Shown piece by piece: positions 734-13,025 of a DNA stretch of 15,407 nt (positions are counted from its first letter, which is position 1; each line of letters opens with the position of its first letter). Origin of the DNA: Thermoproteota archaeon (GTDB lineage: Archaea; Thermoproteota; EX4484-205; JAAOZP01). The DNA lies in assembly GCA_049700215.1 (NCBI GenBank), contig JBNAVT010000013.1, positions 1 to 15,407 on the forward strand, given 5' to 3'. Below the pieces are notes generated by a model. That model was not told the DNA's origin and did not search any database. It was given only the letters and a program-made list of their open reading frames with translations. The translations under genes were made by a program, and so were the position numbers.

Positions 734-922
734 TCATTTTTTAGCGCGCGCGCATATGGTTTCAACTATCTTTGAGTTTTTAATTTCTTCATCTTTTGTA
801 ATTAACGTGGCGTTAAGAATCTTCGCAGTTGCAACAATGATTCTGTCATGAAGTTCTTTCAGTCTTATGTGAGGAAGGAGCCTTATCACTTGGAGGTTAA
901 GAGAAGCAGGAACGAAATTCAT
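734..922 (-). pseudogene. C-terminal half of a VapC/PIN toxin
   Basis: ELHDRIIVATAKILNATLITKDEEIK is a typical PIN C-terminal pattern. The N-terminal PIN motif (hhD[T/A]) is absent. The piece is bounded by GC tracts at 744-753 and 924-929. Confidence 0.8.
744..753. repeat. (GC)5 junction tract
   Basis: TTAGCGCGCGCGCAT. It lies where the C-terminal end of the inverted PIN remnant would be. Confidence 0.9.
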
Positions 923-928
923 AGCGCG

Positions 929-1006
929 CTACAGTATAAAGCTTCTCAGCTTTTTAATCTCTTCTTCAAGCTCATTCAGCCTTTTAGTTACTTCCACCAT
1001 TTTCAT
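929..1006 (-). pseudogene. N-terminal stub of a small coiled-coil antitoxin-like gene
   Basis: Own translation: MKMVEVTKRLNELEEEIKKLRSFIL*. Its TAG stop is formed at the TAGCGCGC junction, directly upstream of the PIN remnant on the same strand. Confidence 0.55.
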
Positions 1007-1033
1007 AATAACTTTGATAGAAACTATTAGCGC

Positions 1034-1075
1034 GCTTGATCTACTAATGCTTTTAAGAATGCTTAAATACTGGTT
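1034..1075 (+). repeat. 42-bp direct repeat, copy 1 (contains a TATA-like TTAAATA)
   Basis: GCTTGATCTACTAATGCTTTTAAGAATGCTTAAATACTGGTT is identical to 1658-1699. Confidence 0.95.
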
Positions 1076-1092
1076 TTTGTTTTCTTTAAAAC

Positions 1093-1305
1093 GTGAAGAA
1101 TAGGAGATTCACAGTCCGGTTGAAGAAGGATCCGGAATCCGGCTGGTATGCCGCGAGGTGTGTAGAGCTTCCGGAAGTTATTTCTCAGGGACGAACTGAG
1201 GAGGAGGCTTTGATGAATATTAGGGAAGCGTTAGAATTAGTGCTTGAAGAGTATGAGAAAGAGGCGGAGAAAGAAGGGCATAAACTGGTAGAGCTCGTTG
1301 TCTAA
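1093..1305 (+). CDS. hicB: HicB-family antitoxin (short form without a DNA-binding domain)
   Basis: 70 aa with GWYAARCVELPEVISQGRTEEEALMNIREALEL, the typical HicB/UPF0150 signature. GTG start. Confidence 0.92.
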   Translation: MKNRRFTVRLKKDPESGWYAARCVELPEVISQGRTEEEALMNIREALELVLEEYEKEAEKEGHKLVELVV

Positions 1306-1519
1306 GCTTCCTGTTGTTTCCGGAAGGGATGTGATAAGGGCTCTTTCTAAACTGGGTTTTTATCCAGTAAGGCAAAGGGGGAGCCATGTGTTCCTGAGGC
1401 ATGAGGACGGAAGGCGTACCGTGGTTCCTCTTCACGAAGAGATTAATAAGACGACGCTCATGGATATTCTGAATCAAATTGGTCTAACTAAAGAAGAATT
1501 TCTGAAGTTATTAAAGTGA
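1298..1519 (+). CDS. hicA: HicA-family mRNA interferase toxin
   Basis: 73 aa with LGF..VRQRGSHVFL.H.DGRRTVVPLH, including the catalytic GSH. Overlaps the end of hicB. Confidence 0.93.
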   Translation: MSKLPVVSGRDVIRALSKLGFYPVRQRGSHVFLRHEDGRRTVVPLHEEINKTTLMDILNQIGLTKEEFLKLLK

Positions 1520-1550
1520 AAAGACAAGAACATATTCTGGTCGAAAATAA

Positions 1551-1657
1551 GGGTTTGAGACCCTAGTCTACGAGGCTTCTAAGGCTACTTACGATCTTTA
1601 CGGTGTTGCTGTTTCTAAGACTGGTGACGTTTATGTTTCCTGCCCGTATACTGACGA
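1551..1657 (+). pseudogene. Possible NHL/beta-propeller repeat gene fragment
   Basis: An open frame with no start codon reads GFETLVYEASKATYDLYGVAVSKTGDVYVSCPYTD. GVAV..TGDVYV resembles an NHL repeat blade. Confidence 0.35.
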
Positions 1658-1699
1658 GCTTGATCTACTAATGCTTTTAAGAATGCTTAAATACTGGTT
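1658..1699 (+). repeat. 42-bp direct repeat, copy 2
   Basis: Identical to 1034-1075. Confidence 0.95.
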
Positions 1700-1714
1700 G
1701 GTGAGAATACCGTA

Positions 1715-1801
1715 ATGGACATGGCTGAGATCGTTGTAAGGATTCCGACCGAGGTTAGTGAGGAGCTTCTCGCCAAGTTGAAGAAGGATATAAGCAGTTG
1801 A
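1715..1801 (+). pseudogene. Truncated antitoxin-like (RHH-type N-terminus) stub
   Basis: Own translation: MDMAEIVVRIPTEVSEELLAKLKKDISS*. It follows the repeated promoter, has no partner toxin, and a GC tract follows at 1828-1835. Confidence 0.45.
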
Positions 1802-1840
1802 TACTAACATCCTGTTTTCATTCTTTAGCGCGCGCCTAAA

Positions 1841-1854
1841 ATAATGTTTATATA
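1841..1854 (+). promoter_or_regulatory. Putative archaeal TATA promoter of the vapBC pair
   Basis: ATAATG-TTTATATA, ending about 22 nt before ATG 1877. Confidence 0.6.
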
Positions 1855-1876
1855 GGAGCTGGATGGGTAATCTATA

Positions 1877-2119
1877 ATGATGAGCTCATCTGGTAAGCTC
1901 GTGAATGTATCAGTGAAGGTTCCGGAGGAGCTTAGGGAGCGGATGCGCCGTGTGAAAGTTGATTGGAGCGAGTATCTCAGGGAGGCGATAAGTGCCAAGA
2001 TTAGGGAGGAGCTTGCAAGGGAGGCGGCTGAGAAGCTCGACGAGATCAGGCGGAGGGCGAGAAGGGTGCCGACGGAGGTTCTTGTTGGATGGCTGAGGGA
2101 AGAGAGGGAAAGAAGGTAA
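1877..2119 (+). CDS. vapB: VapB-type antitoxin (ribbon-helix-helix-like)
   Basis: VNVSVKVPEELRERMRRVKVDWSEYLREAI is a typical archaeal RHH antitoxin pattern. Overlaps the PIN gene. Confidence 0.82.
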   Translation: MMSSSGKLVNVSVKVPEELRERMRRVKVDWSEYLREAISAKIREELAREAAEKLDEIRRRARRVPTEVLVGWLREERERR

Positions 2120-2553
2120 AGCTGGTAATCGATGCAAGCGTCGCTACGAAATGGATCATACCCGGCGAGCCCTGGGAGGAGGAAGCCGACGCGTTGAAGA
2201 ATGCGATTGCCTCGGGCAGCTTAGAAGCATATGCCCCCACACTCATAATCTATGAGCTCGCCTCAGCCATGTCTAAAGCTATTAGGAACAACGTCCTGAA
2301 AACTCGAGATGGAACTGATGCTCTAGAAGCGGTAGGCTCCCTCGGAATCAAACTAACTCCAATACTCTGGAGGGAAGCCGCTGAAATTCTCGAAGCAGCC
2401 ACCACTTCAGGCCTAACAGTATACGACTCAGCATACCTCTGGCTCTCAAGAAGACTTGGGGGAAGGCTCGTCACAGCAGATGAAAAACTTAAGGAGAAAG
2501 GAGCAACCATCACAGAAACCATCTTGCTAGGAGAGCTGGAACTAAACATCTGA
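2089..2553 (+). CDS. vapC: VapC/PIN-domain ribonuclease toxin
   Basis: LVIDASVATKW, YELASA, TVYDSAYL and LVTADEKL carry the PIN acidic residues. The exact start is uncertain. Confidence 0.9.
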   Translation: MAEGREGKKVKLVIDASVATKWIIPGEPWEEEADALKNAIASGSLEAYAPTLIIYELASAMSKAIRNNVLKTRDGTDALEAVGSLGIKLTPILWREAAEILEAATTSGLTVYDSAYLWLSRRLGGRLVTADEKLKEKGATITETILLGELELNI

Positions 2554-2565
2554 ATAGAAGGGCAA

Positions 2566-2637
2566 TGGATAACCATAGTAAATCCCTTCCCCGGGAAAAC
2601 AGTAATAGAATACCATAAATTCCTAAAGAAAAGCTAG
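2566..2637 (+). pseudogene. C-terminal tail of a PIN toxin paralogous to 10100-10582
   Basis: WITIVNPFPGKTVIEYHKFLKKS* aligns with WIKAVNPIPEDKMQELRAFLKGS, 11/23 identical by manual alignment. Confidence 0.65.
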
Positions 2638-2669
2638 GCGGATAAAACTCCGAAAACCTGGCGCGCGTC

Positions 2670-2697
2670 ATTTTGAATAAAGTTGGCCTAACTAGAG
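2670..2697 (+). pseudogene. 28-bp hicA-like fragment between two GC tracts
   Basis: ATTTTGAATAAAGTTGGCCTAACTAGAG (ILNKVGLTR) versus hicA 1466-1493 ATTCTGAATCAAATTGGTCTAACTAAAG (ILNQIGLTK), 23/28 nt identical. Confidence 0.65.
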
Positions 2698-2724
2698 TGG
2701 CGTGCGATGCTTGAACATTCCGTA

Positions 2725-2737
2725 TAAGGTTTAAATT
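2725..2737 (+). promoter_or_regulatory. Putative BRE/TATA promoter of the rml operon
   Basis: TAAGG-TTTAAATT, about 25 nt upstream of ATG 2763. Confidence 0.55.
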
Positions 2738-2762
2738 TCAGGGAGATTACTGGTTCCACTAA

Positions 2763-3824
2763 ATGAAAGGTGTTGTCTTGCATGGTGGCGCCGGCACTCG
2801 GCTTCGTCCCTTGACTTTCAGCGGCCCTAAGCAGCTTATTCCCGTGGCGAACAAGCCTATAAGCCAGTATGTTTTAGAGGATTTGCGGAGTATCGGTGTT
2901 GTCGACGTGGCGATTGTTCTTGGCGAGACTTTTCCGGAGCTTGTAATGCAGCATTACGGTGATGGAAGCAGGTTCAACATGAGGATATCTTATGTTCACC
3001 AGGGTAAGCCCCTGGGCATTGCTCACGCAGTATACTTGTGCAGGGATTTCGTTCAGGACGATAGCTTCATAGTTTACCTTGGGGATAATCTTCTTCAGAA
3101 CGGTATTAAGGCTTATTTCGAGAAGTTTCTCGTGAACGATTACGACTGCATGGTTCTTTTGAAGGAGGTTGATGATCCTTCGAGGTTCGGCGTCGCAGAG
3201 TTCGATGATAAGGGTGGTCTCGTGAGGCTTGTCGAGAAGCCTAGGGTTCCCCCCAGCAGGTTCGCATTAGTCGGAGTATACTTCTTTAAGCCCGTTGTCT
3301 TCGAAATCATTAAGGGTTTGAAGCCCAGCTGGAGGGGTGAGCTCGAGATTACCGACGCTGTTCAAACAATGCTTGAAAAGGGTTTTCGAGTGAGCTACAG
3401 TATTGTCGACGGGTGGTGGCTCGACACTGGGAAGAAAGACGATATCCTGTACGCTAACTCGCTGATCCTGGATGAGTATGGGGCTAGAGAGGTTAAGGGT
3501 GAGCTGGTCGACTCCAGGGCTGAGGGAAGGGTTTCCGTCGGGGAGGGCAGCAGGGTTGTCAACAGCACTGTAAGGGGTCCCGCGGTGATAGGTGGGGGCT
3601 GCGTTATTCAAAACTCTTTCATCGGTCCCTACACGAGCATAGGTGATAACGTTAAGGTTTTGAACAGTTCGATAGAGTACTCCATCGTTTTAGAGGGGGC
3701 TTGCATCGAGGATGTTGAAAGGCTTGAGGAGAGCCTCGTCGGCAAGAATGCTAGGGTTGTGAAGAACAGGGCTAGAAAGGCTTTAAGACTTCACGTCGGG
3801 GACTACTCCGAGGTGGAGCTATAG
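2763..3824 (+). CDS. rmlA: Glucose-1-phosphate thymidylyltransferase (long form)
   Basis: GVVLHGGAGTRLRPLT..PKQLIPVANKP, LVEKP, PSWRGELEITDA and WWLDTG, followed by a C-terminal hexapeptide-like domain. 353 aa. Confidence 0.95.
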   Translation: MKGVVLHGGAGTRLRPLTFSGPKQLIPVANKPISQYVLEDLRSIGVVDVAIVLGETFPELVMQHYGDGSRFNMRISYVHQGKPLGIAHAVYLCRDFVQDDSFIVYLGDNLLQNGIKAYFEKFLVNDYDCMVLLKEVDDPSRFGVAEFDDKGGLVRLVEKPRVPPSRFALVGVYFFKPVVFEIIKGLKPSWRGELEITDAVQTMLEKGFRVSYSIVDGWWLDTGKKDDILYANSLILDEYGAREVKGELVDSRAEGRVSVGEGSRVVNSTVRGPAVIGGGCVIQNSFIGPYTSIGDNVKVLNSSIEYSIVLEGACIEDVERLEESLVGKNARVVKNRARKALRLHVGDYSEVEL

Positions 3825-3854
3825 GCTTATTACCATGCACGCTATGGTTTAAAC

Positions 3855-4385
3855 ATGCCGCAGGATAAGGCTAGGGAGCTCCCTCTCGCTGGCGTGAGGC
3901 TTCTCAACCTGGCTAGGCATCCTGATGAACGCGGAGTGTTCGCTGAAATCATGCGTTCAGACTGGGCGGGCCTTCTAGAGGGGGATTCTCTTCTGCAGGC
4001 AAACCTCTCCGTGACGTACCCGGGCGTCGTGAGGGCCTGGCATAGGCATGAGAGGGGTCAGACAGACTATTTCCTCGTTTTAAGAGGCTCTGTTAAAGCC
4101 TGCGTCTACGATGAGAAGGAGGCCCACCTGCTTGAAACAGTGCTTTCAGGTGAAGTACTGCAGGTTCTGAGGGTTCCTGGCCACTACTGGCACGGCTTCA
4201 AGGTTGTGAGCCCTGAGCCAGCCTACCTGGTTTACTTCGTGAACAGGCTTTACGACTACGAGGAGCCTGACGAGGTCAGGAGGCCCTGGAACGATCCCCA
4301 GATAGTTCCAAGGATGATAAACGGTAGGATTGATGATCCGCGGTGCAACAGGCCGTGGGACTGGTTTTACCCTCCCCACAGGTGA
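3855..4385 (+). CDS. rmlC: dTDP-4-dehydrorhamnose 3,5-epimerase family (cupin)
   Basis: DERGVFAE, GVVRAWHRH and VPGHYWHGF motifs, and its position in the rml operon. Confidence 0.9.
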   Translation: MPQDKARELPLAGVRLLNLARHPDERGVFAEIMRSDWAGLLEGDSLLQANLSVTYPGVVRAWHRHERGQTDYFLVLRGSVKACVYDEKEAHLLETVLSGEVLQVLRVPGHYWHGFKVVSPEPAYLVYFVNRLYDYEEPDEVRRPWNDPQIVPRMINGRIDDPRCNRPWDWFYPPHR

Positions 4386-4389
4386 GAGC

Positions 4390-5391
4390 ATGCGTCTCCT
4401 GGTTACTGGCGGCTGCGGGTTCATAGGGAGCAACTTCATCAGGCACGTGTTGAAAACGCACGGGGATGTTGAGATTGTTAACGTTGACAACCTGTCCTAC
4501 GGCTCTAGCCTGAGCAACCTGAAGGATATTGAGGATGATAAGCGGTACAGGTTTGTAAGGGGGAGCGTATGCGACCCTGCTCTCATGAGCATGCTCGTGA
4601 ATGATGCTGATGCTGCCGTAAACTTTGCGGCTGAGAGCCATGTTGACCGCAGCATAGCCGACCCCTGGCCCTTCTTCAGGAGCAATACTGAAGGCGTTCT
4701 AGTCCTTCTTGAGGCGGTTAGGAGGAGCAGCAGGAACGTTAGGCTTGTTCAAGTCGGCACTGACGAGAGCTACGGCGATATTCTGGAGGGCTCCTTCAAG
4801 GAGGAGGATGGGCTTAAGCCCTCAAGCCCCTACGCTGCTTCAAAAGCCTCAGCAGACCTTTTCTGCCTAGCCTACCATAGGACCTACGGGCTGAACGTGT
4901 GCGTTACGCGCTGCACTAACAATTTCGGGCCATACCAGTTTCCAGAGAAGCTTATTCCCAAGACGATAGTCAGGGCGATGCTGAATCTTAAGATTCCGAT
5001 TTACGGGAGCGGGAGGAATGTGAGAGACTGGATTTACGTCCTGGACCATTGCGAAGCGTTAGACACGGTTTTGAGAAAAGGGAGGAAGGGTGAAATCTAC
5101 AATATTGCTGGAGGAAACGAGCTTTCAAACCTTCAGGTTGTAGACAGGATTCTGGAGCTCATGGGTAAGCCTAGAGACCTTGTGGAGTTTGTAGAGGACA
5201 GGCCTGGCCACGACGTGCGGTACAGCCTCGACTCCTCTAAAATCAGGAGCGAGCTGGGCTGGGAGCCTAGGCACGTTTTCAACGAGGCTTTGAAGAAAAC
5301 TGTAGAATGGTATTTGAGTAACGAGTGGTGGTGGAGACCTCTGGCTGGCGAGCAGGTTCTTCACCCTACACCTTGGAGGCTCAAGTGGTAG
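4390..5391 (+). CDS. rmlB: dTDP-glucose 4,6-dehydratase
   Basis: LLVTGGCGFIGSNF, NFAAESHVDRSI, TDESYG, PSSPYAASKAS, NNFGPYQFPEKLIP and DRPGHDVRY. Start placed at ATG 4390 (GGTGAG at 4381) rather than 4330. Confidence 0.96.
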   Translation: MRLLVTGGCGFIGSNFIRHVLKTHGDVEIVNVDNLSYGSSLSNLKDIEDDKRYRFVRGSVCDPALMSMLVNDADAAVNFAAESHVDRSIADPWPFFRSNTEGVLVLLEAVRRSSRNVRLVQVGTDESYGDILEGSFKEEDGLKPSSPYAASKASADLFCLAYHRTYGLNVCVTRCTNNFGPYQFPEKLIPKTIVRAMLNLKIPIYGSGRNVRDWIYVLDHCEALDTVLRKGRKGEIYNIAGGNELSNLQVVDRILELMGKPRDLVEFVEDRPGHDVRYSLDSSKIRSELGWEPRHVFNEALKKTVEWYLSNEWWWRPLAGEQVLHPTPWRLKW

Positions 5392-6275
5392 TTTTGAGAA
5401 TCCTGGTGACAGGGGCAAGCGGGCTGGTCGGCCACAGAGTCGCCAGGCTAGCGTTGGAGAAGGGCCACGAGGTCTATTGTCTCTACAGGGAGCATGCTGT
5501 GAACATCGGCGTGCCTCTTACGCTCGACATAACCGACGGGGGCAGGCTGTTGAAGACTATCTCTGAGGTCAAACCGAACGCAATCATTCACACGGCGGCC
5601 TACACTGATGTCGACGGCTGCGAGGCCAATAGGGATCTGGCTTGGAGGGTGAACGCGGAGGCGACGAGAAGCATTGCGGAAGCGTCAGCTGAAAACGGTT
5701 CACACATGGTTTACGTTTCAACAGACTATGTTTTCGACGGTGAGAAAGGCCTGTACCTTGAGGATGACCAGACTAATCCTGTTAACTATTATGGTTTCAC
5801 GAAACTTAAGGGGGAGGAGTTCGTTAAAGAGTATGCTGTAGAGTGGTGTATTGCCAGAACAAGCGTAATCTACGGGTGGAGCCTCACGGGGAAGCCTAAC
5901 TTTGCCACATGGGTGATTAATAATTTGAGGCAGAGGAAGGAGGTTAATGCGCTCATAGACCAGTACGTGTCGCCGACGCTTAACACTAACCTGGCTGAGA
6001 TGCTTCTGGAGGTTGCGGAGAGGAGGATAACCGGAGTACTACATGCCTCGGGCGCTACAAGAATCAATAGATACATGTTTGCATTGAAACTCGCTGAAGC
6101 CTTCAGCCTAGATAAGGATTTGGTGAAGCCGGCTGAGATGAGAAGTATCTCTTGGAAGGCCAGGAGGCCGAGAGACTCCTCTCTAAACGTGGATAAGGCT
6201 TCAACATTGCTTAAGGCCAAACCGTTGAAGCTTGAACAAGCTTTGCGGAATATGAGAAACATTAAACCCGGATAG
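5385..6275 (+). CDS. rmlD: dTDP-4-dehydrorhamnose reductase
   Basis: ILVTGASGLVG, HTAAYTDVDGCE, STDYVFDG, YYGFTKLKGE and DQYVSPT. Start is GTG 5385 (GGAGG at 5375-5379) or TTG 5394. Confidence 0.93.
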   Translation: MVVLRILVTGASGLVGHRVARLALEKGHEVYCLYREHAVNIGVPLTLDITDGGRLLKTISEVKPNAIIHTAAYTDVDGCEANRDLAWRVNAEATRSIAEASAENGSHMVYVSTDYVFDGEKGLYLEDDQTNPVNYYGFTKLKGEEFVKEYAVEWCIARTSVIYGWSLTGKPNFATWVINNLRQRKEVNALIDQYVSPTLNTNLAEMLLEVAERRITGVLHASGATRINRYMFALKLAEAFSLDKDLVKPAEMRSISWKARRPRDSSLNVDKASTLLKAKPLKLEQALRNMRNIKPG

Positions 6276-6301
6276 CACGCGCATGAAGATATTATTTAGC
6301 C

Positions 6302-6544
6302 GTGCCAAAACAGATTGAAATAGAGGTTCCGGAAGAAATACATGCCTTAATCGAATCCGATCCATTTATGAAGCTGCTTTTGGAGAGGGTCGTCAGAGAA
6401 GAGGCTGTGAACTATGCGCTATCCATATTGACGCTTGATAAGCTTACAGAGGACTCTATGCTGACAGAGGATGATGCAGTGAAGGTGGACAGAAAGGTCA
6501 AGGAAGGTATCGGGAAAAGGGTTGAGGATGAAAATAATCGTTGA
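6302..6544 (+). CDS. Putative antitoxin (small protein upstream of a PIN gene)
   Basis: 80 aa with an N-terminal IEIEVPEEI. Overlaps the PIN gene. Confidence 0.6.
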   Translation: MPKQIEIEVPEEIHALIESDPFMKLLLERVVREEAVNYALSILTLDKLTEDSMLTEDDAVKVDRKVKEGIGKRVEDENNR

Positions 6545-6935
6545 CGCTAACAAATTAATCTCGTGCCTGCTTAAGGATAGTTTAACTCTGAGCTTAGCGA
6601 AATACGAGGTTGGAAACCCACTTTGGAAGGAGGCTCTGCTTCAGAAAAGAATAAGTATTCAGGAGGCTTTTGAAACAATGCTCTTGCTGAACAAAGTTTT
6701 GAAAATAATGGGAACTGTGAATCCTTCGAATGATGGAATGGTTCTAAAGCTAGCATGTGAACTTAAAGCAACGTTCTATGACGCATCATACATAGCGGCG
6801 TCGATAGAGAACAATTCAAGGCTAGTAACCGATGACGAGAAGCTTACGAGGAAAATACGGGAGAACGCTAACACTATAGTTAAAATACTTGGACATAAAA
6901 CGGAAGCACCATCAAGCAGTAACATCACGGGTTGA
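6528..6935 (+). CDS. vapC: PIN-domain toxin, possibly internally deleted or chimeric
   Basis: MKIIVDAN, YEVGN, TFYDASYIA and LVTDDEKL. The spacing between the first Asp and the conserved Glu is unusually short. Confidence 0.75.
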   Translation: MKIIVDANKLISCLLKDSLTLSLAKYEVGNPLWKEALLQKRISIQEAFETMLLLNKVLKIMGTVNPSNDGMVLKLACELKATFYDASYIAASIENNSRLVTDDEKLTRKIRENANTIVKILGHKTEAPSSSNITG

Positions 6936-6978
6936 AAGGAGAGAATGATGTCAAGTTGTCGAGCGCACGTGTTTTCCT

Positions 6979-6992
6979 GAAAAGGCTTATAA
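6979..6992 (+). promoter_or_regulatory. BRE/TATA promoter of the collapsed module
   Basis: GAAAAGGC-TTATAA, upstream of ATG 7024. Confidence 0.6.
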
Positions 6993-7023
6993 GTAATCTC
7001 GTTAAATTCTGAAGAACGGCAAA

Positions 7024-7131
7024 ATGTCTGAACTCCTGGTCGTGTTCGAAGAGCATGATAAGAACTGGTCGCGCGCTAGATTCAGGCTGGTTTGTGATAA
7101 AAGCAGGGATGAGATTTACCTGGAGCGATAG
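7024..7131 (+). pseudogene. Collapsed DUF5678-like/aspartyl protease module: N-terminus of gene 1 fused to C-terminus of gene 2 at GCGCGC
   Basis: Own translation: MSELLVVFEEHDKNWS-RA-RFRLVCDKSRDEIYLER*. It matches MSEYLMLFDVHESN (ORF 7-243, 7/14 identical) and RYKLIYNERSNEVFLER* (ORF 240-689, 6/17 identical plus conservative changes). Confidence 0.85.
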
Positions 7132-7385
7132 AACAACGATTTCGTTCTCTCAGGTTTCTGTTGACGGCCTGCTCAACATGGTTAAAGTGTTGAAGGGCAT
7201 GGAGGTGGCTTGTGTAACTAGGAGGAGTCTAGAGATTTAGGCTAGTGTTCAAACATCTTTTTTAAAGCTTTTAAGTTTATTCTTCTTTCTCAAGAAAGCA
7301 TGAAGCTTCGGGAAAACGGGAGAAATATTGAAGGCGCATCCGTATCGCGGTTGGCCGCTGTGCCCTGGTAGGAGGGTGTTGAGCG

Positions 7386-8906
7386 CTGCCTGACGACGAG
7401 GGTTTAAGCATTGCTTCCGTCGCCGTCGGCTCAATATATCTTGTTCTTCAAAACGTTGTTTCAACAGCTATCGGCGTCTTGGGCTATGCTTTCATGGCTA
7501 GGGTGGTGACGCAGGAGGAGATGGGTGTTGTAGCCGGGGTTACTCTCCTCCACTCTCTAGCCCAGGTTCTGGTTGACTTCGGTTTGAACGCGTCTATCGC
7601 GAGGTTTGTTTCAGAGAGTATCGGGAGGAAGACGGGTTACGCGAAGCGTGTTTTCTCAGCCCTCGTATTCAGGCTCCTAGTCTCCCTGGCTGTCTTCCTC
7701 CTGATACTGTCTTCGTCGACGATTGTTTCCCAGGTTTTCTTCGGATCCCCCGGGTACTCTAGCCTGCTAGCCATAGTCACTGTGGACATGACGCTTGCCT
7801 CCATCGCTTCTCTTCTGAACGGTGTCCTCCTTGGCTCAGGGCGTTTGAAAACCATGGCTTTCTTCAACACGGTTTCCGTCGCAGCCAGATGGGTCTCAAT
7901 AGTCGTACTCCTGCTCCAGGGCTATGGCTTAACGGGGGTGTTCTACGGCTGGATTACGGGGAGCATTGTGCTGCTAGCGTTGCTGGCTTCCTCAACCCTT
8001 AGGCTAACGGGCTTAGGAGGAGGCTCCCCAGGGGAGCATGGTATCCTTTGGAGCATGCTGAGGTTCTCAGCCCCGGTTTACGCCGCTTCAATGGTTTCCT
8101 TCCTCTACAACTGGTATGATAAGGCTCTCATCCTCGCCTTCCTCCCGCTTCAACAGCTCGGAGTGTACAACGTTGCCTACACGGCTTTCACGGTCTACGC
8201 GTCCATTGCTTCAGCAGTAGGCTCCTCCCTCCTCCCCTTCTACGGCGTGTTGTACGGCAGGGGTGAGCACTCAGCCGTCTCCGAGGGTGTTAGACGGGTT
8301 AGCAGGTACACGATGCTGCTTCTCTTCCCGCTTGCACTAGGCTTAGCGTCAACCTCTAGGCAAGTGTTGATTGTTTTCGCGGGGAGACAGTATGAGCCGG
8401 GCTGGCTTACGCTGGCGACGCTATCCGTCTTCGGCATGGTCTACGGGGTTTCCACAGCCTTCAGCAACCTCCTGCTAATATACGGGAGGACCAGGACTAT
8501 TCTCCTGGTGACGCTTGCTTCAACACTGCTCAGCATAGTTTTCATGCCCCTGGTGACGGTTCTCAACCTGGTTGGCCTCGCCGTCGTCAAGGGAGCATCC
8601 ATCCTCCTAAGCTTCCTGCTCTCACTATTCTTCATAAAGAGGATCGTGACGGTTAGGATAGATGCTACGGCTGCTTTCAAGACCATCCTATCCTCAACTC
8701 TCATGGCGATAGTGGTGCTTGCTTCTCAACATTTTCTCCAGGGAAGCCTGTTCCTCCCCCTGCATTTTTTAACCGGCGTCGCAGCCTACGCTCTACTCGT
8801 CAGGGGTCTTAAAGTGTTGAACAGCGACGACGTGGAGCTTATCAGAGAAGTTTTCGGAGAAAAAGTCTCCCGATACCTGGTTAGAATAATGGGGATGAAA
8901 TCCTAA
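7386..8906 (+). CDS. Wzx-like oligosaccharide flippase (MOP superfamily)
   Basis: Many hydrophobic segments, with DFGLNASIARFV and DKALILAFLPLQQLGVYNVA. The frame is open upstream of 7479 to CTG 7386 and encodes the missing first TM helix (VAVGSIYLVLQNVVSTAIGVLG). GGAGGGTG lies at 7371-7378. Confidence 0.9.
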   Translation: MPDDEGLSIASVAVGSIYLVLQNVVSTAIGVLGYAFMARVVTQEEMGVVAGVTLLHSLAQVLVDFGLNASIARFVSESIGRKTGYAKRVFSALVFRLLVSLAVFLLILSSSTIVSQVFFGSPGYSSLLAIVTVDMTLASIASLLNGVLLGSGRLKTMAFFNTVSVAARWVSIVVLLLQGYGLTGVFYGWITGSIVLLALLASSTLRLTGLGGGSPGEHGILWSMLRFSAPVYAASMVSFLYNWYDKALILAFLPLQQLGVYNVAYTAFTVYASIASAVGSSLLPFYGVLYGRGEHSAVSEGVRRVSRYTMLLLFPLALGLASTSRQVLIVFAGRQYEPGWLTLATLSVFGMVYGVSTAFSNLLLIYGRTRTILLVTLASTLLSIVFMPLVTVLNLVGLAVVKGASILLSFLLSLFFIKRIVTVRIDATAAFKTILSSTLMAIVVLASQHFLQGSLFLPLHFLTGVAAYALLVRGLKVLNSDDVELIREVFGEKVSRYLVRIMGMKS

Positions 8907-9014
8907 TCCGCGCGCTAAAGGCCTATGGTCGGCTTCAAATAGGCGGTTTCTAACAATCCCCTTCGTCAGAGCTCATTCGCTCTATGTTTGGCGCGTGCGG
9001 GTGATGAAAAGTTT

Positions 9015-9077
9015 ATCCCACTATAGAAATGATAAAGCTTAAATCCCACTAAGAATTAAAGAAATAATCAGGTGGGA
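9015..9077. promoter_or_regulatory. Putative autoregulatory operator and promoter of the AbrB-VapC pair
   Basis: ATCCCACTA at 9015-9023 and 9043-9051, each just after a TATA-like box, plus an inverted GTGGGA at 9072-9077. Confidence 0.55.
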
Positions 9078-9079
9078 AA

Positions 9080-9322
9080 ATGAGCATTCTAGAATTAGAC
9101 AGCAAGGGGAGGCTGACGCTGCCGAAAGAGGTCAGGGAATCACTCAACATCGGGAGGAAAGTCTTAATCATAAACGCTGGAGACCACCTTAAAATAATCC
9201 CGCTGCCATCAGACCCATTCCAGGTTCTTCACGGAGCGTTCAACGTTAAGAAACCGTTCAAAGAGCTTAGGAAACAGGCGGAGCAGACCGCTGGGAAAGA
9301 GGTTGAGAGGGCTGAGGACTAA
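9080..9322 (+). CDS. vapB: AbrB/MazE-family antitoxin
   Basis: LDSKGRLTLPKEVRESLNI is the AbrB signature. TAATG coupling to the next gene. Confidence 0.88.
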   Translation: MSILELDSKGRLTLPKEVRESLNIGRKVLIINAGDHLKIIPLPSDPFQVLHGAFNVKKPFKELRKQAEQTAGKEVERAED

Positions 9323-9726
9323 TGCCCCTGTTGGAGAACGATGTTGTTTTCGCATACTTGAACGAGTATGACCCTAACCACGCCGTCGCGGAAAGAATCT
9401 TCCAAAAACTCAAAAACAGGCAGGTAAACGTGGAGATTTCGAGCGTCAGCCTGATCGAGATGGAGCTGATCTACAGGAGCGAGAAAATGGAGGATAGGCT
9501 TCTGAAAGACCTGGCGGCCATAGCGGCGCTGCCGAACGTGAAATATGCCGGGTTAACGCCGGACGTGGCTGTTGCAAGCGTATACTTGAGGCAAACCCTC
9601 AGCCTAACGTTCTTCGACTCGCACTACGCCGCGGCTGCGCTGAACCTGGATAGGAAAATCATTTCCTTCGACCAGGCATACGACAGGGTGCCCGGCTTAA
9701 CACGAGTCAGGCCTGAAACAGTTTAG
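9322..9726 (+). CDS. vapC: VapC/PIN-domain toxin
   Basis: LLENDVVFAYL (Glu at the first acidic position), SSVSLIE, TFFDSHYAAAA and IISFDQAYD. Confidence 0.88.
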   Translation: MPLLENDVVFAYLNEYDPNHAVAERIFQKLKNRQVNVEISSVSLIEMELIYRSEKMEDRLLKDLAAIAALPNVKYAGLTPDVAVASVYLRQTLSLTFFDSHYAAAALNLDRKIISFDQAYDRVPGLTRVRPETV

Positions 9727-9811
9727 CGTATGAACGGAGGGGAAGAGTAGCAGGCAATTGGTGGCGCATGCTCTTGAGCGTGCCATTGAGCTGCAGCCGC
9801 TACTAGGCTTG

Positions 9812-9847
9812 GCAAAGTTTATAAAGTGGAATTCCATCTTCCATTCC
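9812..9847 (+). promoter_or_regulatory. BRE/TATA promoter with an adjacent palindromic operator
   Basis: GCAAAG-TTTATAAA (9812-9825), followed by the palindrome TGGAATTCCA (9827-9836) and TTCCA repeats. Confidence 0.6.
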
Positions 9848-9851
9848 AAAT

Positions 9852-10133
9852 ATGGGGAGTAAGACCAAGGTTTCCTCCCAGGGGAGAACAGTGATTCCGG
9901 CGGAAATAAGGGAGAAGCTGGGGATCCGCGAGGGAGAGGAGGTTGAGTGGACCCTGGAGGGAGATGCTATAGTGGTTAGGCTGGTGCGGGAGGAGAAAAC
10001 GCCTGACGAGATTATGCGTCAAATCAAAAACCATTTAGTGGAGATTAAGGCTGTTGGAAAGAAGATTCCTGCTGACCTGAAGAGCTGGATGATGGAGGAT
10101 TGGGCGAGAAGGAAGCTAGGGCTGACGCCGTAG
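9852..10133 (+). CDS. AbrB/MazE-family antitoxin
   Basis: KVSSQGRTVIPAEIREKLGIREGEEVEW. Confidence 0.88.
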   Translation: MGSKTKVSSQGRTVIPAEIREKLGIREGEEVEWTLEGDAIVVRLVREEKTPDEIMRQIKNHLVEIKAVGKKIPADLKSWMMEDWARRKLGLTP

Positions 10134-10582
10134 TCGACGTCGGAATCCTGGCTGTAGGCTTGTCTAAGAACCCTGCTACCGACTATTGCCTAGAGCTGAT
10201 GGAGGACGCTGTTAGGGGTAGAATCAGAGTCCTCATCCCGTATACTGTGGTTTTCGGCGCCCACTATATTTTGACTAGGCTTTACGGCGTTTCGCCCAAG
10301 GAGGCAGGCGGCTTACTGCGAAGCTTACTTTCCTCTAAAAGGATAGTTTGGCATGGGCGTATTGACGGAGACGATGTGGAGAAGTCCTTTGAGAACACTG
10401 AGAATTATGGTTTGGATGCTTGGGACGGATATATTCTGCGCTTGATGGAGGAGAATCAAATCAGGATTATTTACACACTCGACATGGAGCATTTCGGCAA
10501 AATAAACTGGATAAAGGCGGTTAACCCTATTCCGGAGGATAAAATGCAGGAGCTACGCGCCTTCTTAAAAGGAAGCGTATAA
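10100..10582 (+). CDS. vapC: PIN-domain toxin
   Basis: AVVDVG, LDAWDGYIL and IYTLDMEHF. Overlaps the AbrB gene. Confidence 0.8.
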   Translation: MGEKEARADAVVDVGILAVGLSKNPATDYCLELMEDAVRGRIRVLIPYTVVFGAHYILTRLYGVSPKEAGGLLRSLLSSKRIVWHGRIDGDDVEKSFENTENYGLDAWDGYILRLMEENQIRIIYTLDMEHFGKINWIKAVNPIPEDKMQELRAFLKGSV

Positions 10583-10586
10583 CCAG

Positions 10587-10639
10587 TATCGACGTCTTGG
10601 GCTGTGCTTTCATGGCTGGGGCAGTAACGCAGGAGGAGA
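10587..10639 (+). repeat. Degenerate 53-bp copy of the flippase 5' region
   Basis: 47/53 identical to 7469-7521. All six mismatches are transitions. Confidence 0.9.
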
Positions 10640-10723
10640 ATGGGGAAAGCGCAGCACGCACTTGACATAATTTCCATCTCAGAAATTTCGCTGGGCTTAA
10701 ACGATAAAGAAGCGCGCGCTCGC

Positions 10724-10737
10724 GAAAGCCTTATAAT
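10724..10737 (+). promoter_or_regulatory. BRE/TATA promoter of the HEPN-MNT pair
   Basis: GAAAGCC-TTATAAT, immediately after the GC tract at 10712-10719. Confidence 0.55.
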
Positions 10738-10771
10738 TAATTTAGCAGCTTCTTAAATATGGCGTTATAGG

Positions 10772-11209
10772 TTGGTAAGTATGGATACTGGCGATGAGAG
10801 GATTTCAAGGCTTCTCAAGGATGTTGGAAACTCTCTTAAAATAGCTGAAGACCTTACTTCTCTAAGTCTTGACGAATTCTTAGGTGATGTCAGAAATAGG
10901 TATACTCTGAGGCTTGCTCTTGTAGAAATAGTTGAGGCCATGACTTCGCTAGGTCTATACATTCTCAGAGAACGCCTCAAGACTGAGGCTGAGGGATACA
11001 TAGCAGTCTTTAGAAAACTTGTTGAAAATGGAGTAATATCTAAAGAGGTTGGGGATAGTGTAGAGAGGTTGACGAGACTGAGGAACCTCATTATTCATAG
11101 GTATTGGGAGGTTGATGATGCTAGAGTATATAGAGAAGCTAGGGAAGGAGGGTTAAACATCATAAAGAGGTTTGTAGATGAGGTGAGGAGTTATGCCTCT
11201 GGATCTTGA
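10772..11209 (+). CDS. HEPN-domain (DUF86/HepT-like) RNase toxin
   Basis: RLRNLIIHRYWEVD contains the RX4H(X)Y motif. Start is TTG 10772 or ATG 10781. Confidence 0.9.
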   Translation: MVSMDTGDERISRLLKDVGNSLKIAEDLTSLSLDEFLGDVRNRYTLRLALVEIVEAMTSLGLYILRERLKTEAEGYIAVFRKLVENGVISKEVGDSVERLTRLRNLIIHRYWEVDDARVYREAREGGLNIIKRFVDEVRSYASGS

Positions 11210-11609
11210 GGAGAGGGAGAGGTTCAGGTTTTACAGGATTAGTAAAGGGGAGAAGGAGAGGGTTGCGGAGGTTCTTAAAAGAGTTCTGTATGGCCGTGGG
11301 GAGACGGCTCTGGCAGTGCTCTATGGATCGTTCCTTAAGGACTACCCGTTTAGAGATATAGATGTGGCGGTGTACGTGGTGGGTGAAGGGCTTGACCCCC
11401 TAGACTACGAGCTCAGCTTGGAAGCAGAGCTTAGCGAGAAGCTGGGCTACAATACTGATGTGAAGGTGTTGAACGACGCACCCCCATGGTTTGTAAAGAA
11501 GGCTCTGAGAGAAGGGGTGATCCTTATCGAGAAAATACCGCTTCTCAACGAGAAACTCTATCTTAAAGCAGTAGATGAGGAAGCACTAGCCGAGCATATC
11601 GAGCCCTAG
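11193..11609 (+). CDS. Minimal nucleotidyltransferase (MNT/MntA-like antitoxin)
   Basis: LYGSFLKDYPFRDIDVAVY (GS...DxD) and DVKVLNDAP. Overlaps the HEPN gene. Confidence 0.9.
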   Translation: MPLDLEERERFRFYRISKGEKERVAEVLKRVLYGRGETALAVLYGSFLKDYPFRDIDVAVYVVGEGLDPLDYELSLEAELSEKLGYNTDVKVLNDAPPWFVKKALREGVILIEKIPLLNEKLYLKAVDEEALAEHIEP

Positions 11610-11859
11610 AATACGCACGCCTTTACAGCCGCGCTTAACAGGGTTGGGGAAGCCGCACCTCCTGCGCGCGCTTCAATCCTGAAAGGTTTCTAATTAAAAG
11701 AAGTCGAAAGAATCGATGTCGTTGCAATACCTAGAAACTAATGAAAAACTTAAAACCTCTCTTTGTATTTCTCGAGTTGAGCATAGATTTTCCGGAGAAG
11801 GTGAGCGTGCGCGATGAGGTTGCGCGCGCGCTTTTTACACCTTTTTTAACTCAACCGGG

Positions 11860-12012
11860 ATGAACGATGAGCAGAAGCTGGAAGAGCTGGAGAAGAGGCT
11901 AAGGGCGGTGGATCTAGCCTACGAGATGTTTGACGATCTTGACGCGGAGATGAAATTCACAAGAGCATTTCGTAGAACAATGGAAAAAACACGTAGGAGA
12001 ACCGTCTCCTGA
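11860..12012 (+). other. Short ORF (50 aa), possibly an antitoxin-like remnant
   Basis: Own translation: MNDEQKLEELEKRLRAVDLAYEMFDDLDAEMKFTRAFRRTMEKTRRRTVS*. It follows the last GC tract. Confidence 0.3.
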
Positions 12013-12059
12013 TTCACGTTAAAAAAATATTTAGAAAAAAGCACCGAGGGGAAGCGTGT

Positions 12060-13025
12060 CTACCACCAGGGCTTAACCTCAGGAGGCTCAACTCTCACAA
12101 GGGGCTTAAGGAAGAACAACGCCTGCTCCACGCCAGAGTCCCTGCTGAAACACGGGTCCTCATGCTCAACACTCAACACGTAGTTATACCCTGTCTCCAG
12201 TAAAGCCGTTACAAGTCTGCGCCACGGAACCTGCCCCCACCCCACTGTCCTGAACCTCACCGGCCTCGCAACCCTGTTCCACGGACCGTACGCCAGAACC
12301 CCGGTTTTATCCGCCGTGTGGTGAACCACTTCAACGTCTTTCGCATGCACGTGAAATATTCTGTCGTGAAGCTCGTATATGAATATCACCGGGTCCATCT
12401 GCTGCCACACGAAGTGAGACGGGTCGTAGTTGAAGCCGAGCGCCTTGTGCCCCCCAGCAGCCTCAACCAGAGCCTTAGCCGTGTCAAGATTATAGTTCAG
12501 CTCCATCGGGTGTGTCTCGAAAGCAATCCTAATCCCATGGTCACTCGCGTAGTCAAGAATAGGAAGCCACCTCTCCCTGAATATTTTAAAATAGTTGTTC
12601 CAAATCTCCTCGTTCGTCGGTGGAAAGTTGTACCATTTTCCCCACTCGGGCACGCCTGTGAAGCCGCATACTACTGGGACGTTGAGTGTTTGCGCGGCGT
12701 CTATGGTTTTCTTCATTCTGCTGACGCCGTATTCGATTTTCTCTTTAGGCGTGCCTTTGAACCATATGTCTGTTGACTCGTCGAGTGGCCCCAGTATGAG
12801 CTGGCTTTCAAGATGGTTGCTTAAGGCGGATATTTGCATCCCGTACTTGGTTACGGTGCTTCTTATTTCGCTTGCTCCGCCTGAGGTGACTTGGTCGATG
12901 TTGATGTGGTTTGAGCCTTTCCAGCATGCTAGTTCAACAGCCTCGTAGCCTAGGGAGGAGACGTATTCCAGCGTTTTGTCAAGCGGCCGATCGTTGTACA
13001 GGACTGTGAAAATGCCTACCTTCAT
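12060..13025 (-). CDS. Sugar phosphate isomerase/epimerase (xylose isomerase-like TIM barrel, IolE/AP endonuclease 2 family)
   Basis: LGYEAVEL, IAFETHP, NYDPSH, HVHAKD and LSVEHED carry the metal-binding E-D-H-E residues. Start placed at MKVGIF (13025). Confidence 0.88.
   Translation of the reverse strand: MKVGIFTVLYNDRPLDKTLEYVSSLGYEAVELACWKGSNHINIDQVTSGGASEIRSTVTKYGMQISALSNHLESQLILGPLDESTDIWFKGTPKEKIEYGVSRMKKTIDAAQTLNVPVVCGFTGVPEWGKWYNFPPTNEEIWNNYFKIFRERWLPILDYASDHGIRIAFETHPMELNYNLDTAKALVEAAGGHKALGFNYDPSHFVWQQMDPVIFIYELHDRIFHVHAKDVEVVHHTADKTGVLAYGPWNRVARPVRFRTVGWGQVPWRRLVTALLETGYNYVLSVEHEDPCFSRDSGVEQALFFLKPLVRVEPPEVKPWW

Follow-up and report, generated by a model that had tools for sequence, protein, structure and literature searches.

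Short palindromic G/C tracts at rearrangement junctions in one clade of Thermoproteota, possible scars of a break-and-rejoin process

We analysed a stretch of 15,407 nt at the start of contig 13 of a hot-spring archaeon of the Thermoproteota (GenBank JBNAVT010000013.1; the window, which always means this whole stretch), in which ten short tracts of alternating G and C lie among small gene cassettes. The source genome, G000, is a 2.09-Mb metagenome-assembled genome (MAG) of 2,089,643 bp in 85 contigs, 94.6% complete. We found that the tracts are copies of a palindromic unit, (T)A(GC)3-5T(A), whose commonest core is (GC)4 and whose full form is TA(GC)4TA, that they coincide with the ends of homology between paralogues and between species far more often than expected by chance, and that the undisturbed alleles of these junctions are tract-free. 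We give a probability of about one half to the reading that they are sequence-specific scars of an undescribed break-and-rejoin (end-joining) process in this lineage. In a limited literature search, which covered abstracts and some passages, the phenomenon was nowhere described.

The unit and its distribution

The window holds 17 overlapping GCGCGC matches, which form ten maximal tracts, against a mean of 2.96 (sd 1.90, maximum 10) in 200 dinucleotide-preserving shuffles, none of which attained 17, and there are zero matches downstream of 11831. This agrees with the first-pass annotation, made from the sequence alone, which had listed the same ten tracts (two of them, 7070-7076 and 8909-8915, proved one base longer, with a leading C), an excess over chance and no tract after 12060. 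It had likewise recognised that five tracts are 8-10 nt long (744-753, 1828-1835, 10712-10719, 11664-11671 and 11822-11831) and that the contexts TAGCGCGC and GCGCGCTA are present in the window; these hold across the genome too. It had placed all ten between modules or at breakpoints of broken genes; according to crude gene calls nine are non-coding, and 744-753 overlaps the final codons of a predicted 62-aa minus-strand open reading frame (ORF; 733-922) whose part conserved in relatives stops at 753/758.

The array had been seen as a special locus, which it is not. Defining a tract genome-wide as an alternating G/C run of at least 6 nt, we counted 608 in the source genome, and the motif marks a whole clade. 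Enrichment in non-coding DNA, which had been proposed as a check, was found at about 10-fold: 362 tracts lie in the non-coding 13% of the genome (1.33 per kb) versus 246 in the coding 87% (0.135 per kb), figures that are approximate since the gene calls come from a crude, home-made codon-usage ORF picker. The three commonest non-coding 8-mers of the genome are AGCGCGCG, GCGCGCTA and GCGCGCGC, which rank above TATA-like words. Tract density is alike in all four intergenic orientations (tandem, convergent, divergent), and we therefore rejected the idea that the unit is a promoter or terminator element. The tracts are clustered, with 36 islands containing 217 of the 468 tracts considered; the largest island examined carries transporters, HEPN/MNT and PIN-like genes, and in the related genome G008 22 tracts fall within 15 kb, separated by pieces of 9-120 nt. 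Within coding DNA of the source genome GCGCGC is not avoided (observed/expected 1.62). A survey lists GC6/GC8 patterns as under-represented in prokaryotes in general (PMC4060949).

Among 607 tracts, the base before the tract is A in 377 and the base after it T in 382, while the next positions outward are T in 258 (-2) and A in 235 (+2). The number of A(GC)nT words is 372 for n=2, 53 for n=3, 118 for n=4, 33 for n=5, 2 for n=6 and 2 for n=7, and most (GC)4 runs have the A..T flanks (118 of 135, with 17 flanked otherwise); by length, 55 tracts are of 10 nt and 2 of 12 nt. The (GC)4 peak and the fixed flanks point to a preferred length and not to slippage-type decay of a microsatellite, so that the variable length from untemplated or slippage addition which had been suggested for the window gave way to a defined unit joined through 1-3 nt of microhomology. 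Some slippage does happen, given that tract 744 is 2 nt shorter, (GC)4 instead of (GC)5, in an independent contig. Beyond ±2 the complementarity of the flanks is at background and there is no longer conserved context. A longer repeat or miniature inverted-repeat transposable element was accordingly rejected, as flank symmetry and conservation end at ±2 and no high-identity repeat family is present; a self-BLAST of the source genome returned zero repeats of at least 300 nt at 90% identity or more.

As a separate observation, a tRNA-like gene pair (G000:C8:51545-51552 and C28:37-44) has CGCGCGCG within a 23-nt stretch that is missing from paralogous tRNA-like sequences. The stretch lacks TA flanks and is possibly an intron or a variable-arm insertion.

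Across genomes, AGCGCGCGCT occurs 118 times in G000, 88 in G008, 70 in G002, 33 in G009, 32 in G007, 18 in G006 and 16 in G010, falls to 6 in G013 and 3 each in G011 and G014, and is absent (0) from seven more genomes of the genus. Identities of one conserved gene split the genus into one clade with all the tract-rich genomes and one that is tract-poor. In other genera most of 184 genomes have 0-5 copies; G105 has 22 and G142 has 30, both belong to other families, and a reversed control word has 0 copies in each. Within the genus the motif is the mark of a single clade; outside it, two unrelated genomes from other families share it. G105 is a closed genome of 1.75 Mb, of which we compared the first 800 kb. 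In G105 too the tracts stand in a TA..TA context, and they are found among PIN-type pairs, including a VapBC-like pair bracketed by tracts; A(GC)3T and A(GC)4T occur nine times each, all nine (GC)4 runs being so flanked and seven more (GC)3 runs being otherwise flanked, and tracts of at least 8 nt number 4 in coding versus 12 in non-coding DNA. The "reverse" motif T(CG)4A in G057 reflects merely a G+C-rich genome (about 600 CGCGCGCG and 680 GCGCGCGC), and G159, going by counts only, has the motif 10 times and the reversed control 12 times, near-equal numbers that look compositional.

Tracts at the junctions of rearranged DNA

When the source genome was compared with itself, 29 of its 338 homology ends in non-coding DNA fell no more than 2 nt from a tract; 5.25 were expected, and the highest of 200 samplings was 10. 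In the alignment of G000 with 615 kb of its closest relative, G002, the same was true of 12 of the 102 block ends in non-coding DNA, where 1.74 were expected and 300 samplings never gave more than 6. The coincidence of tracts with homology and synteny breakpoints, which the first-pass annotation had proposed as a test, lies far above chance. It had also asked whether intact homologues lack the tract; they do, and the tract was hence added at the junction. In most of the 38 listed self-comparison cases the paralogue runs on tract-free, as where one copy reads GTA/GCGCGCGC/TAG and the other GTA/ctcacac (slashes mark the junctions). Two gene fragments, of 74 nt (G000:C56) and 207 nt (G000:C2), are flanked by tracts on both sides, and at another locus about 50 nt that contain a hairpin were swapped for AGCGCGCGC in the tract-bearing copy. 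In the relative L002, a 3' fragment of rmlD begins directly at GCGCGCGC, where the intact gene reads TCTC/TAAACGTGG.

Between G000 and G002, tracts of 6-7 nt, mostly within long conserved stretches, are usually common to both genomes, while among tracts of at least 8 nt in alignable DNA only 3 of 9 and 2 of 8 are. Typical small events have (GC)3-5 in place of 1-60 nt, or the unit inserted with a 4-6-nt duplication. For larger events a tract stands at the junction in 23 of 61, when random 30-nt non-coding windows contain one in 2.8% of cases. Twenty-two of these events are clean pairs of a short and a long allele, with the tract in the short allele in 8, at the edge of the long allele in 1 and nowhere in 13. 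G002 reads GCAGCCG/GCGCGCGC/TATTTTAATT where G000 has 1750 nt, and GCCTA/GCGCGC/TAGG where G000 has 1988 nt; conversely, G000 reads GGCTTA/GCGCGCGC/TAATGC where G002 has GGCTTA, 320 nt and TAATGC. The DNA that was lost held ordinary genes, judged from their translations: oxidoreductase-like and ferredoxin-like ORFs and a 649-aa glycosidase-like ORF.

The direction of these changes could be read from other genomes of the genus. Two kb-scale segments missing from G002 persist in five and four of them, respectively, which makes its tract-bearing deletions the derived state. For the small events at C16:45731 and C16:46171 it is G000 that has the derived state, the sites being empty in 3-4 outgroups, and at C4:90139 (GC)5 stands for about 57-60 nt of coding DNA that four genomes retain. 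G000, G008 and G010 each have a different tract at the site GAAAAAG/TTTTTA, which is tract-free in G002 and G009; this is a recurrent hot spot with three independent gains. Older tracts decay through transitions (for example CGCGCGCGC versus CACGTGCGT).

At the junctions themselves, homology reaches the tract in 17 ends, of which 16 have A as the final base in common and 9 have xTA as the final triplet. In another 17 ends it stops one base short; here the base that is not shared is A 14 times, and the shared base before it is T 15 times. A further 11 ends run 1-3 nt into the G/C core and 7 stop 2-3 nt short. Compared with the non-coding background (T 0.275, TA 0.067), these biases indicate that native ends join the TA(GC)nTA unit on 1-3 shared bases, namely T, TA or G/C. 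Target duplications vary between 4, 5, 6, about 21 and 45 nt, which fits staggered breaks rather than one transposase.

Two side observations belong with these comparisons. Three short segments that were replaced by tracts contain inverted repeats of their own (ACTCTATCAGAGT; GGTAAGCGG..CCGCTTACC; GCTTGTAGGCGCG..CGCGTAAGC), which hints that hairpin-prone spots may be favoured break sites. At G000:C7:30139-30141, about 1578 nt of G002:C7 (an in-frame segment of 1.6 kb) are missing; the segment splits the P-loop motif GPPGTGK, is intein-like and has tract-free borders.

Possible origins of the tracts

We hypothesise that a break and its rejoining would leave at the joint a short self-complementary unit, with the core A(GC)4T and often an outer T..A, and that the same process could act at small indels, kb-scale deletions, the capture of foreign cassettes (toxin-antitoxin pairs) and gene fragments. 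Native ends would meet the unit via 1-3 shared bases (T, TA, or G/C into the core), and, the unit being an all-G/C palindrome, any two extended ends could anneal in either orientation, with a stability suited to high temperature. As most tract lengths would break reading frames, scars would be expected to persist chiefly in non-coding DNA, where the survivors would decay by transitions. Self-complementary annealing in end joining was already the proposal of the first-pass annotation and is still the best reading. As for how the unit is supplied, we prefer a version in which a 3' end in T or TA would prime on an existing tract and copy it, so that scars would seed scars; a dedicated enzyme or template would be an equally open source.

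A more specific form of this idea, which we offer tentatively and expect to fail more readily than to hold, is that TA(GC)4TA acts as a self-propagating repair splint, each repair leaving a copy that templates the next. If true, this would account without a dedicated gene for the fixed length, the T/TA microhomology and the explosive, clade-limited spread (118 versus 0 copies within the genus; three families), and would provide a route by which toxin-antitoxin and other foreign cassettes are stitched into the chromosome. It would also be an archaeal counterpart of telomere-repeat insertion at breaks. In vertebrates, short interstitial telomeric repeats are inserted at break sites during repair, with the filler supplied by telomerase. 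The two cases have in common a fixed short repeat at an orthologously "empty" site, sometimes with a small deletion or microhomology, that is read as break filler. Here, however, the unit is a self-complementary 10-12-mer, no reverse transcriptase (RVT) was found, the chromosome needs no telomeres, and tracts also mark kb-scale deletions and cassette captures.

Several points weigh against break-and-rejoin scarring. That events start with double-strand breaks we infer from their end products, and for any single junction a two-step history, with the tract first and a later rearrangement at it, may apply. The ends of high-scoring segment pairs, whether in repeat families or in related genomes, are non-independent events, and the coding and non-coding densities share the roughness of the gene calls. 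With 13 of 22 large indels and 38 of 61 larger events tract-free, DNA is also rejoined in other ways. A microhomology of 1-2 nt makes for chemically weak priming, the copy-from-scar version leaves the first scar unexplained, and the sharp (GC)4 peak could equally reflect a site-measuring protein. Finally, our Pfam searches of the source genome identified neither an enzyme nor a template that would supply the unit: there was no match to Ku (PF02735), Prim-Pol (PF09250) or RVT_1, and the PolX palm gave a sub-threshold match of 21 bits with no bona fide PolX, so that the AEP/Prim-Pol and PolX enzymes suggested by the first-pass annotation were not found, and neither was Ku. Bacterial-type non-homologous end joining (Ku plus LigD) is therefore not supported. 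At 94.6% completeness these and the following negatives are to be read as "not found" rather than "absent".

The main rival explanation, which we consider rather unlikely, is that the palindrome is a miniature non-autonomous mobile element, or a minimal element end, inserted in trans, such that the DNA between tracts moves as a cassette and tract-tract recombination or intramolecular transposition yields deletions, solo tracts and fragments. This would be compatible with bracketing on both sides (1828/2661 and 10712/11664 in the window, the 74-nt and 207-nt fragments, the VapBC-like pair of G105), with the clustering into 36 islands and the 22 tracts in 15 kb of G008, with the short target duplications at some insertions, with a patchy spread resembling that of insertion sequence (IS) families, and with a native T/TA preference reminiscent of TA-targeting transposons. 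The duplications, however, vary in length (4 to 45 nt) and are lacking in many events; of 17 junctions offset by one base, 15 have a native T and an added A, so that TA is no strict duplicated target; both endpoints of the G002 deletions are tract-free in the undeleted G000 allele; and no cassette was found at two loci with identical tract-defined ends. To our knowledge, 10-12 bp is shorter than any known transposase end.

The enzymes of such an element were not found either. The source genome had no match to the Y1 transposase (Y1_Tnp, PF01797) or to the IS630-type DDE transposase (DDE_3, PF13358), the latter a weak test since MAGs often lose IS copies, and zero matches to tyrosine recombinases (Phage_integrase, PF00589), for which 14 of 14 control genomes, archaea included, were positive; as an aside, its Xer-type recombinase must be missing, unassembled or very divergent. 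TnpB does not follow the motif, being absent in the tract-rich G002 and G009 and present in 6 copies in G011, which has 3 canonical tracts. Transposons of the Tc1/mariner and IS630 kind, which cut and paste at TA, leave excision footprints, and the TA-x-TA layout with a short palindromic insert is similar; unlike in such footprints, the TA is often half native, neither an IS630-type transposase nor a full-length GCGC-ended element was found, and unrelated DNA is joined. The likeness to an integron array that the first-pass annotation had remarked on extends to promoter-proximal small cassettes, many of them toxin-antitoxin pairs, split by a recurring palindrome, but it did not survive: the search for tyrosine recombinases came up empty, the palindrome does not extend into anything like attC (an imperfect hairpin of tens of nt), and the tracts are genome-wide and also at deletions and fragments. 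REPs are hairpin-forming sequences of about 20-40 nt accompanied by a RAYT (Y1) gene. REP/REPIN elements, which RAYT transposases mobilise (PMC3116915), resemble our tracts in being short palindromes between genes, present in hundreds of copies and variable among close relatives; the present unit is of 10-12 nt, with no extended hairpin and no Y1 transposase found.

Still less probable is a selected site, for instance one bound by an abundant DNA-binding protein, a signal for methylation or uptake, or a structural element (Z-DNA or clamp), with the breakpoints arising from its fragile or recombinogenic nature. Being the most over-represented non-coding word of the genome, with a sharp length preference, fixed flanks and lineage specificity, the motif has the look of one, three independent gains at one intergenic site could be so understood, and some window tracts lie 10-13 nt upstream of TATA-like boxes. 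Yet its density is equal in convergent, divergent and tandem spacers, few long tracts are common to G000 and G002, old ones decay by transitions, and tracts form the sole filler of gene deletions and also occur within a broken coding region. As undisturbed alleles are tract-free, a fragile pre-existing site cannot account for the junctions. Neither G000 nor its tract-rich kin yielded a C5 methylase, and 16 of the 17 genomes in the genus have an N6/N4-type candidate (G000:C31) regardless of tract load, tract-poor kin included; a second methylase match (G000:C53) resembles a tRNA methylase by its sequence. A comparison could be made with HIP1 (GCGATCGC) of cyanobacteria, an 8-bp G+C-rich palindrome that is likewise hyper-abundant, lineage-specific and long obscure in function, and that, according to two papers, numbers more than one per gene and is linked to orphan methylases (PMC5861425, PMC4390886). 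Unlike HIP1 as so described, our tracts are about 10 times sparser in coding DNA, originate as insertions or fillers and are not conserved in position, and no matching methylase was found to follow them.

We consider it very improbable that a BssHII-like enzyme (G^CGCGC) cuts the DNA and that religation, partly after fill-in, gives tracts of 6, 8 and 10 nt, as the first-pass annotation had also contemplated. The even lengths and the drop beyond 10 nt (55 to 2) are what one would calculate for a 4-nt CGCG overhang joined in full, in part or as blunt ends, and restriction-modification systems are patchily distributed; GCGCGC is nonetheless missing at the breakpoints in undisturbed alleles and not avoided in coding DNA (the ratio of 1.62 above), no C5 methylase was found in tract-rich genomes, and the A..T flanks and T/TA microhomology are left unexplained.

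An assembly, amplification or library artefact of MAGs is hardly credible: G000 is a MAG and its contig ends lie within 130 nt of a tract in 17 of 170 cases versus 6.4 expected, but the tracts recur in independent Logan contigs (contigs, not reads) from two runs, each of a different study (X1, which may be the source sample, and X2), are confined to one clade among MAGs of many studies while near-absent in 190 other genomes of the phylum, exist in the closed, single-contig G105, and as orthologous tracts are common between species and diverge by point mutation.

In the search for a gene behind the motif, none of the handful of gene families that we checked against tract load follows it. A multi-copy family of large proteins in G000 (C10:347-5198 and C57:2-2605, with paralogues on C11, C20, C28 and C85; 6-7 paralogues at 63-77% DNA identity, no Pfam match) has C-termini with a PD-(D/E)xK nuclease-like motif by eye. 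The family was rejected as the source, being present in the tract-poor G003 and not found in G002, G105 and G142; it is confined to some genomes of the genus, with no correlation with tracts. A tblastn search of G000 proteins against the 800 kb of G105 revealed no unusually similar gene (the top match, at 69% identity, is metabolic).

If scars of rejoining is what the tracts are, they would bear on how archaea without Ku-type end joining mend two-ended breaks, delete genes and gain foreign cassettes. A sequence tag on the products makes such events countable, datable and polarisable straight from genomes, and about one third of the large deletions between sister species are tagged (8 of 22), along with many cassette and fragment boundaries. 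The tag could be used as a read-out of break repair; G105 being a closed genome, a culture may exist. In MAGs the tag flags recently rearranged DNA and pseudogenised genes, and accounts for part of the contig breaks. Should the unit be supplied by an enzyme or template, this would be a new DNA-joining activity at high temperature.

Tracts and cassettes of the window

The features of the window are as follows; tracts have no strand.

744..753: (GC)5 tract, context ttttTA/GCGCGCGCGC/ATatgg, between a DUF5678/aspartyl-protease pair and a small conserved minus-strand ORF
924..929: (GC)3 tract within the full palindrome TAGCGCGCTA, bounding the small-ORF block 753-919 on its other side
1030..1035: (GC)3 tract, abutting the first copy of a 45-nt direct repeat
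1031..1075, plus strand: 45-nt direct repeat, copy 1, 98% identical to 1655-1699
1655..1699, plus strand: 45-nt direct repeat, copy 2, inside the gene fragment 1549-1792
1828..1835: (GC)4 tract, where paralogue homology ends exactly, 41 nt upstream of a VapB-like/PIN pair
1877..2553, plus strand: ribbon-helix-helix (RHH) antitoxin-like ORF and PIN (VapC-like) toxin (Pfam), bracketed by tracts 1828 and 2661
2661..2667: 7-nt tract upstream of rmlA; homology of relatives starts at 2706 or 2763
2763..6275, plus strand: dTDP-rhamnose genes (nucleotidyl transferase, epimerase, dehydratase, reductase; Pfam), core block conserved in relatives
6302..6935, plus strand: small ORF and PIN-domain ORF, within a segment of about 1.1 kb that is extra between rmlD and the flippase
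7070..7076: 7-nt tract inside the 1.1-kb extra segment, amid remnants of a degraded small ORF
7372..8906, plus strand: polysaccharide flippase-like gene, conserved block
8909..8915: 7-nt tract, 3 nt past the flippase stop
9080..10582, plus strand: two AbrB/MazE-type antitoxin and PIN toxin pairs, the second 92% identical to G002:C2:3674-4533
10581..10644, plus strand: internal flippase fragment (89% identity to 7469-7521), joined onto the end of the second PIN gene
10712..10719: (GC)4 tract that separates the flippase fragment from the HepT/MNT pair
10772..11609, plus strand: pair of HepT-like RNase and minimal nucleotidyltransferase (MNT), bracketed by tracts 10712 and 11664
11664..11671: (GC)4 tract, present in an X2 contig
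11822..11831: (GC)5 tract, the last before a conserved block that begins at about 11946-12062

By Pfam, the tracts separate a dTDP-rhamnose operon, a flippase-like gene, four PIN-type pairs, a HicA/HicB-like pair and the HepT/MNT pair. Contigs of run X1 span the tracts at 744 (there with (GC)4), 924, 1030, 7070, 8909, 10712, 11664 and 11822, and those of X2 span 7070, 11664 and 11822, all unchanged in X2; for 1828 and 2661 there was no spanning contig among the matches listed. These contigs exclude chimeras specific to the MAG, a concern raised in the first-pass annotation. Variants splitting at the tracts, which it had anticipated, did not appear: the joints seen in the window (1610/1675, 2554/9007, 3053/3154 and 7416/7878) end elsewhere and are paralogue- or strain-like.

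The first copy of the 45-nt repeat reads TTAGCGCGCTTGATC, and the copy in the gene fragment, CTGACGAGCTTGATC, is tract-free. The two copies bracket a HicB/HicA cassette (HicA with a Pfam match, HicB-like with a weak one), and the fragment 1549-1792 has paralogues elsewhere in the genome (G000:C71:2087-2333, 88%). The repeat is a long target duplication with the tract at one junction, and a comparable duplication of about 21 nt occurs at G000:C27. At 1828, 32 nt are 100% identical to G000:C71:1831-1862, where C71 continues tract-free as TTTAG/aaaagac, and homology to G007:C2 spans window positions 1797-1827.

In the relative L005, rmlD and the flippase are only about 80 nt apart, where the window has about 1.1 kb. 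Homology to L002-L005 ends around the flippase stop, a few bases before tract 8909, while L001 aligns through and has a decayed form of this tract (TGCACGCGTTA / TGCACGCG). The flippase fragment and PIN gene travel together in G002 and G008, and in G002 a GCGCGC lies 3 nt after the fragment. The HepT/MNT pair has a DNA match in none of the 16 other genomes of the genus, and its best relative has only 65% protein identity, so that no donor was found. HepT/MNT cassettes were also considered as tract carriers and rejected, since of 80 metagenome loci (282 kb) that contain a HepT homologue only one had tracts of at least 8 nt, on a contig of 65% G+C.

Two minor observations concern genes of the window. 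The flippase-like gene appears to lack its usual start at 7372-7480, where the conserved N-terminus of relatives reads TTGCCTGACGACGAG and the window CTGCCTGACGACGAG; the first listed start, TTG at 7479, would cost about 30 conserved codons. Positions 1-689 hold a DUF5678 ORF followed by a 149-aa ORF that matches retropepsin-like aspartyl proteases (RVP, E 6e-5), a pairing unusual for an archaeon, and share 83% DNA identity with G001:C19:2739-3417.

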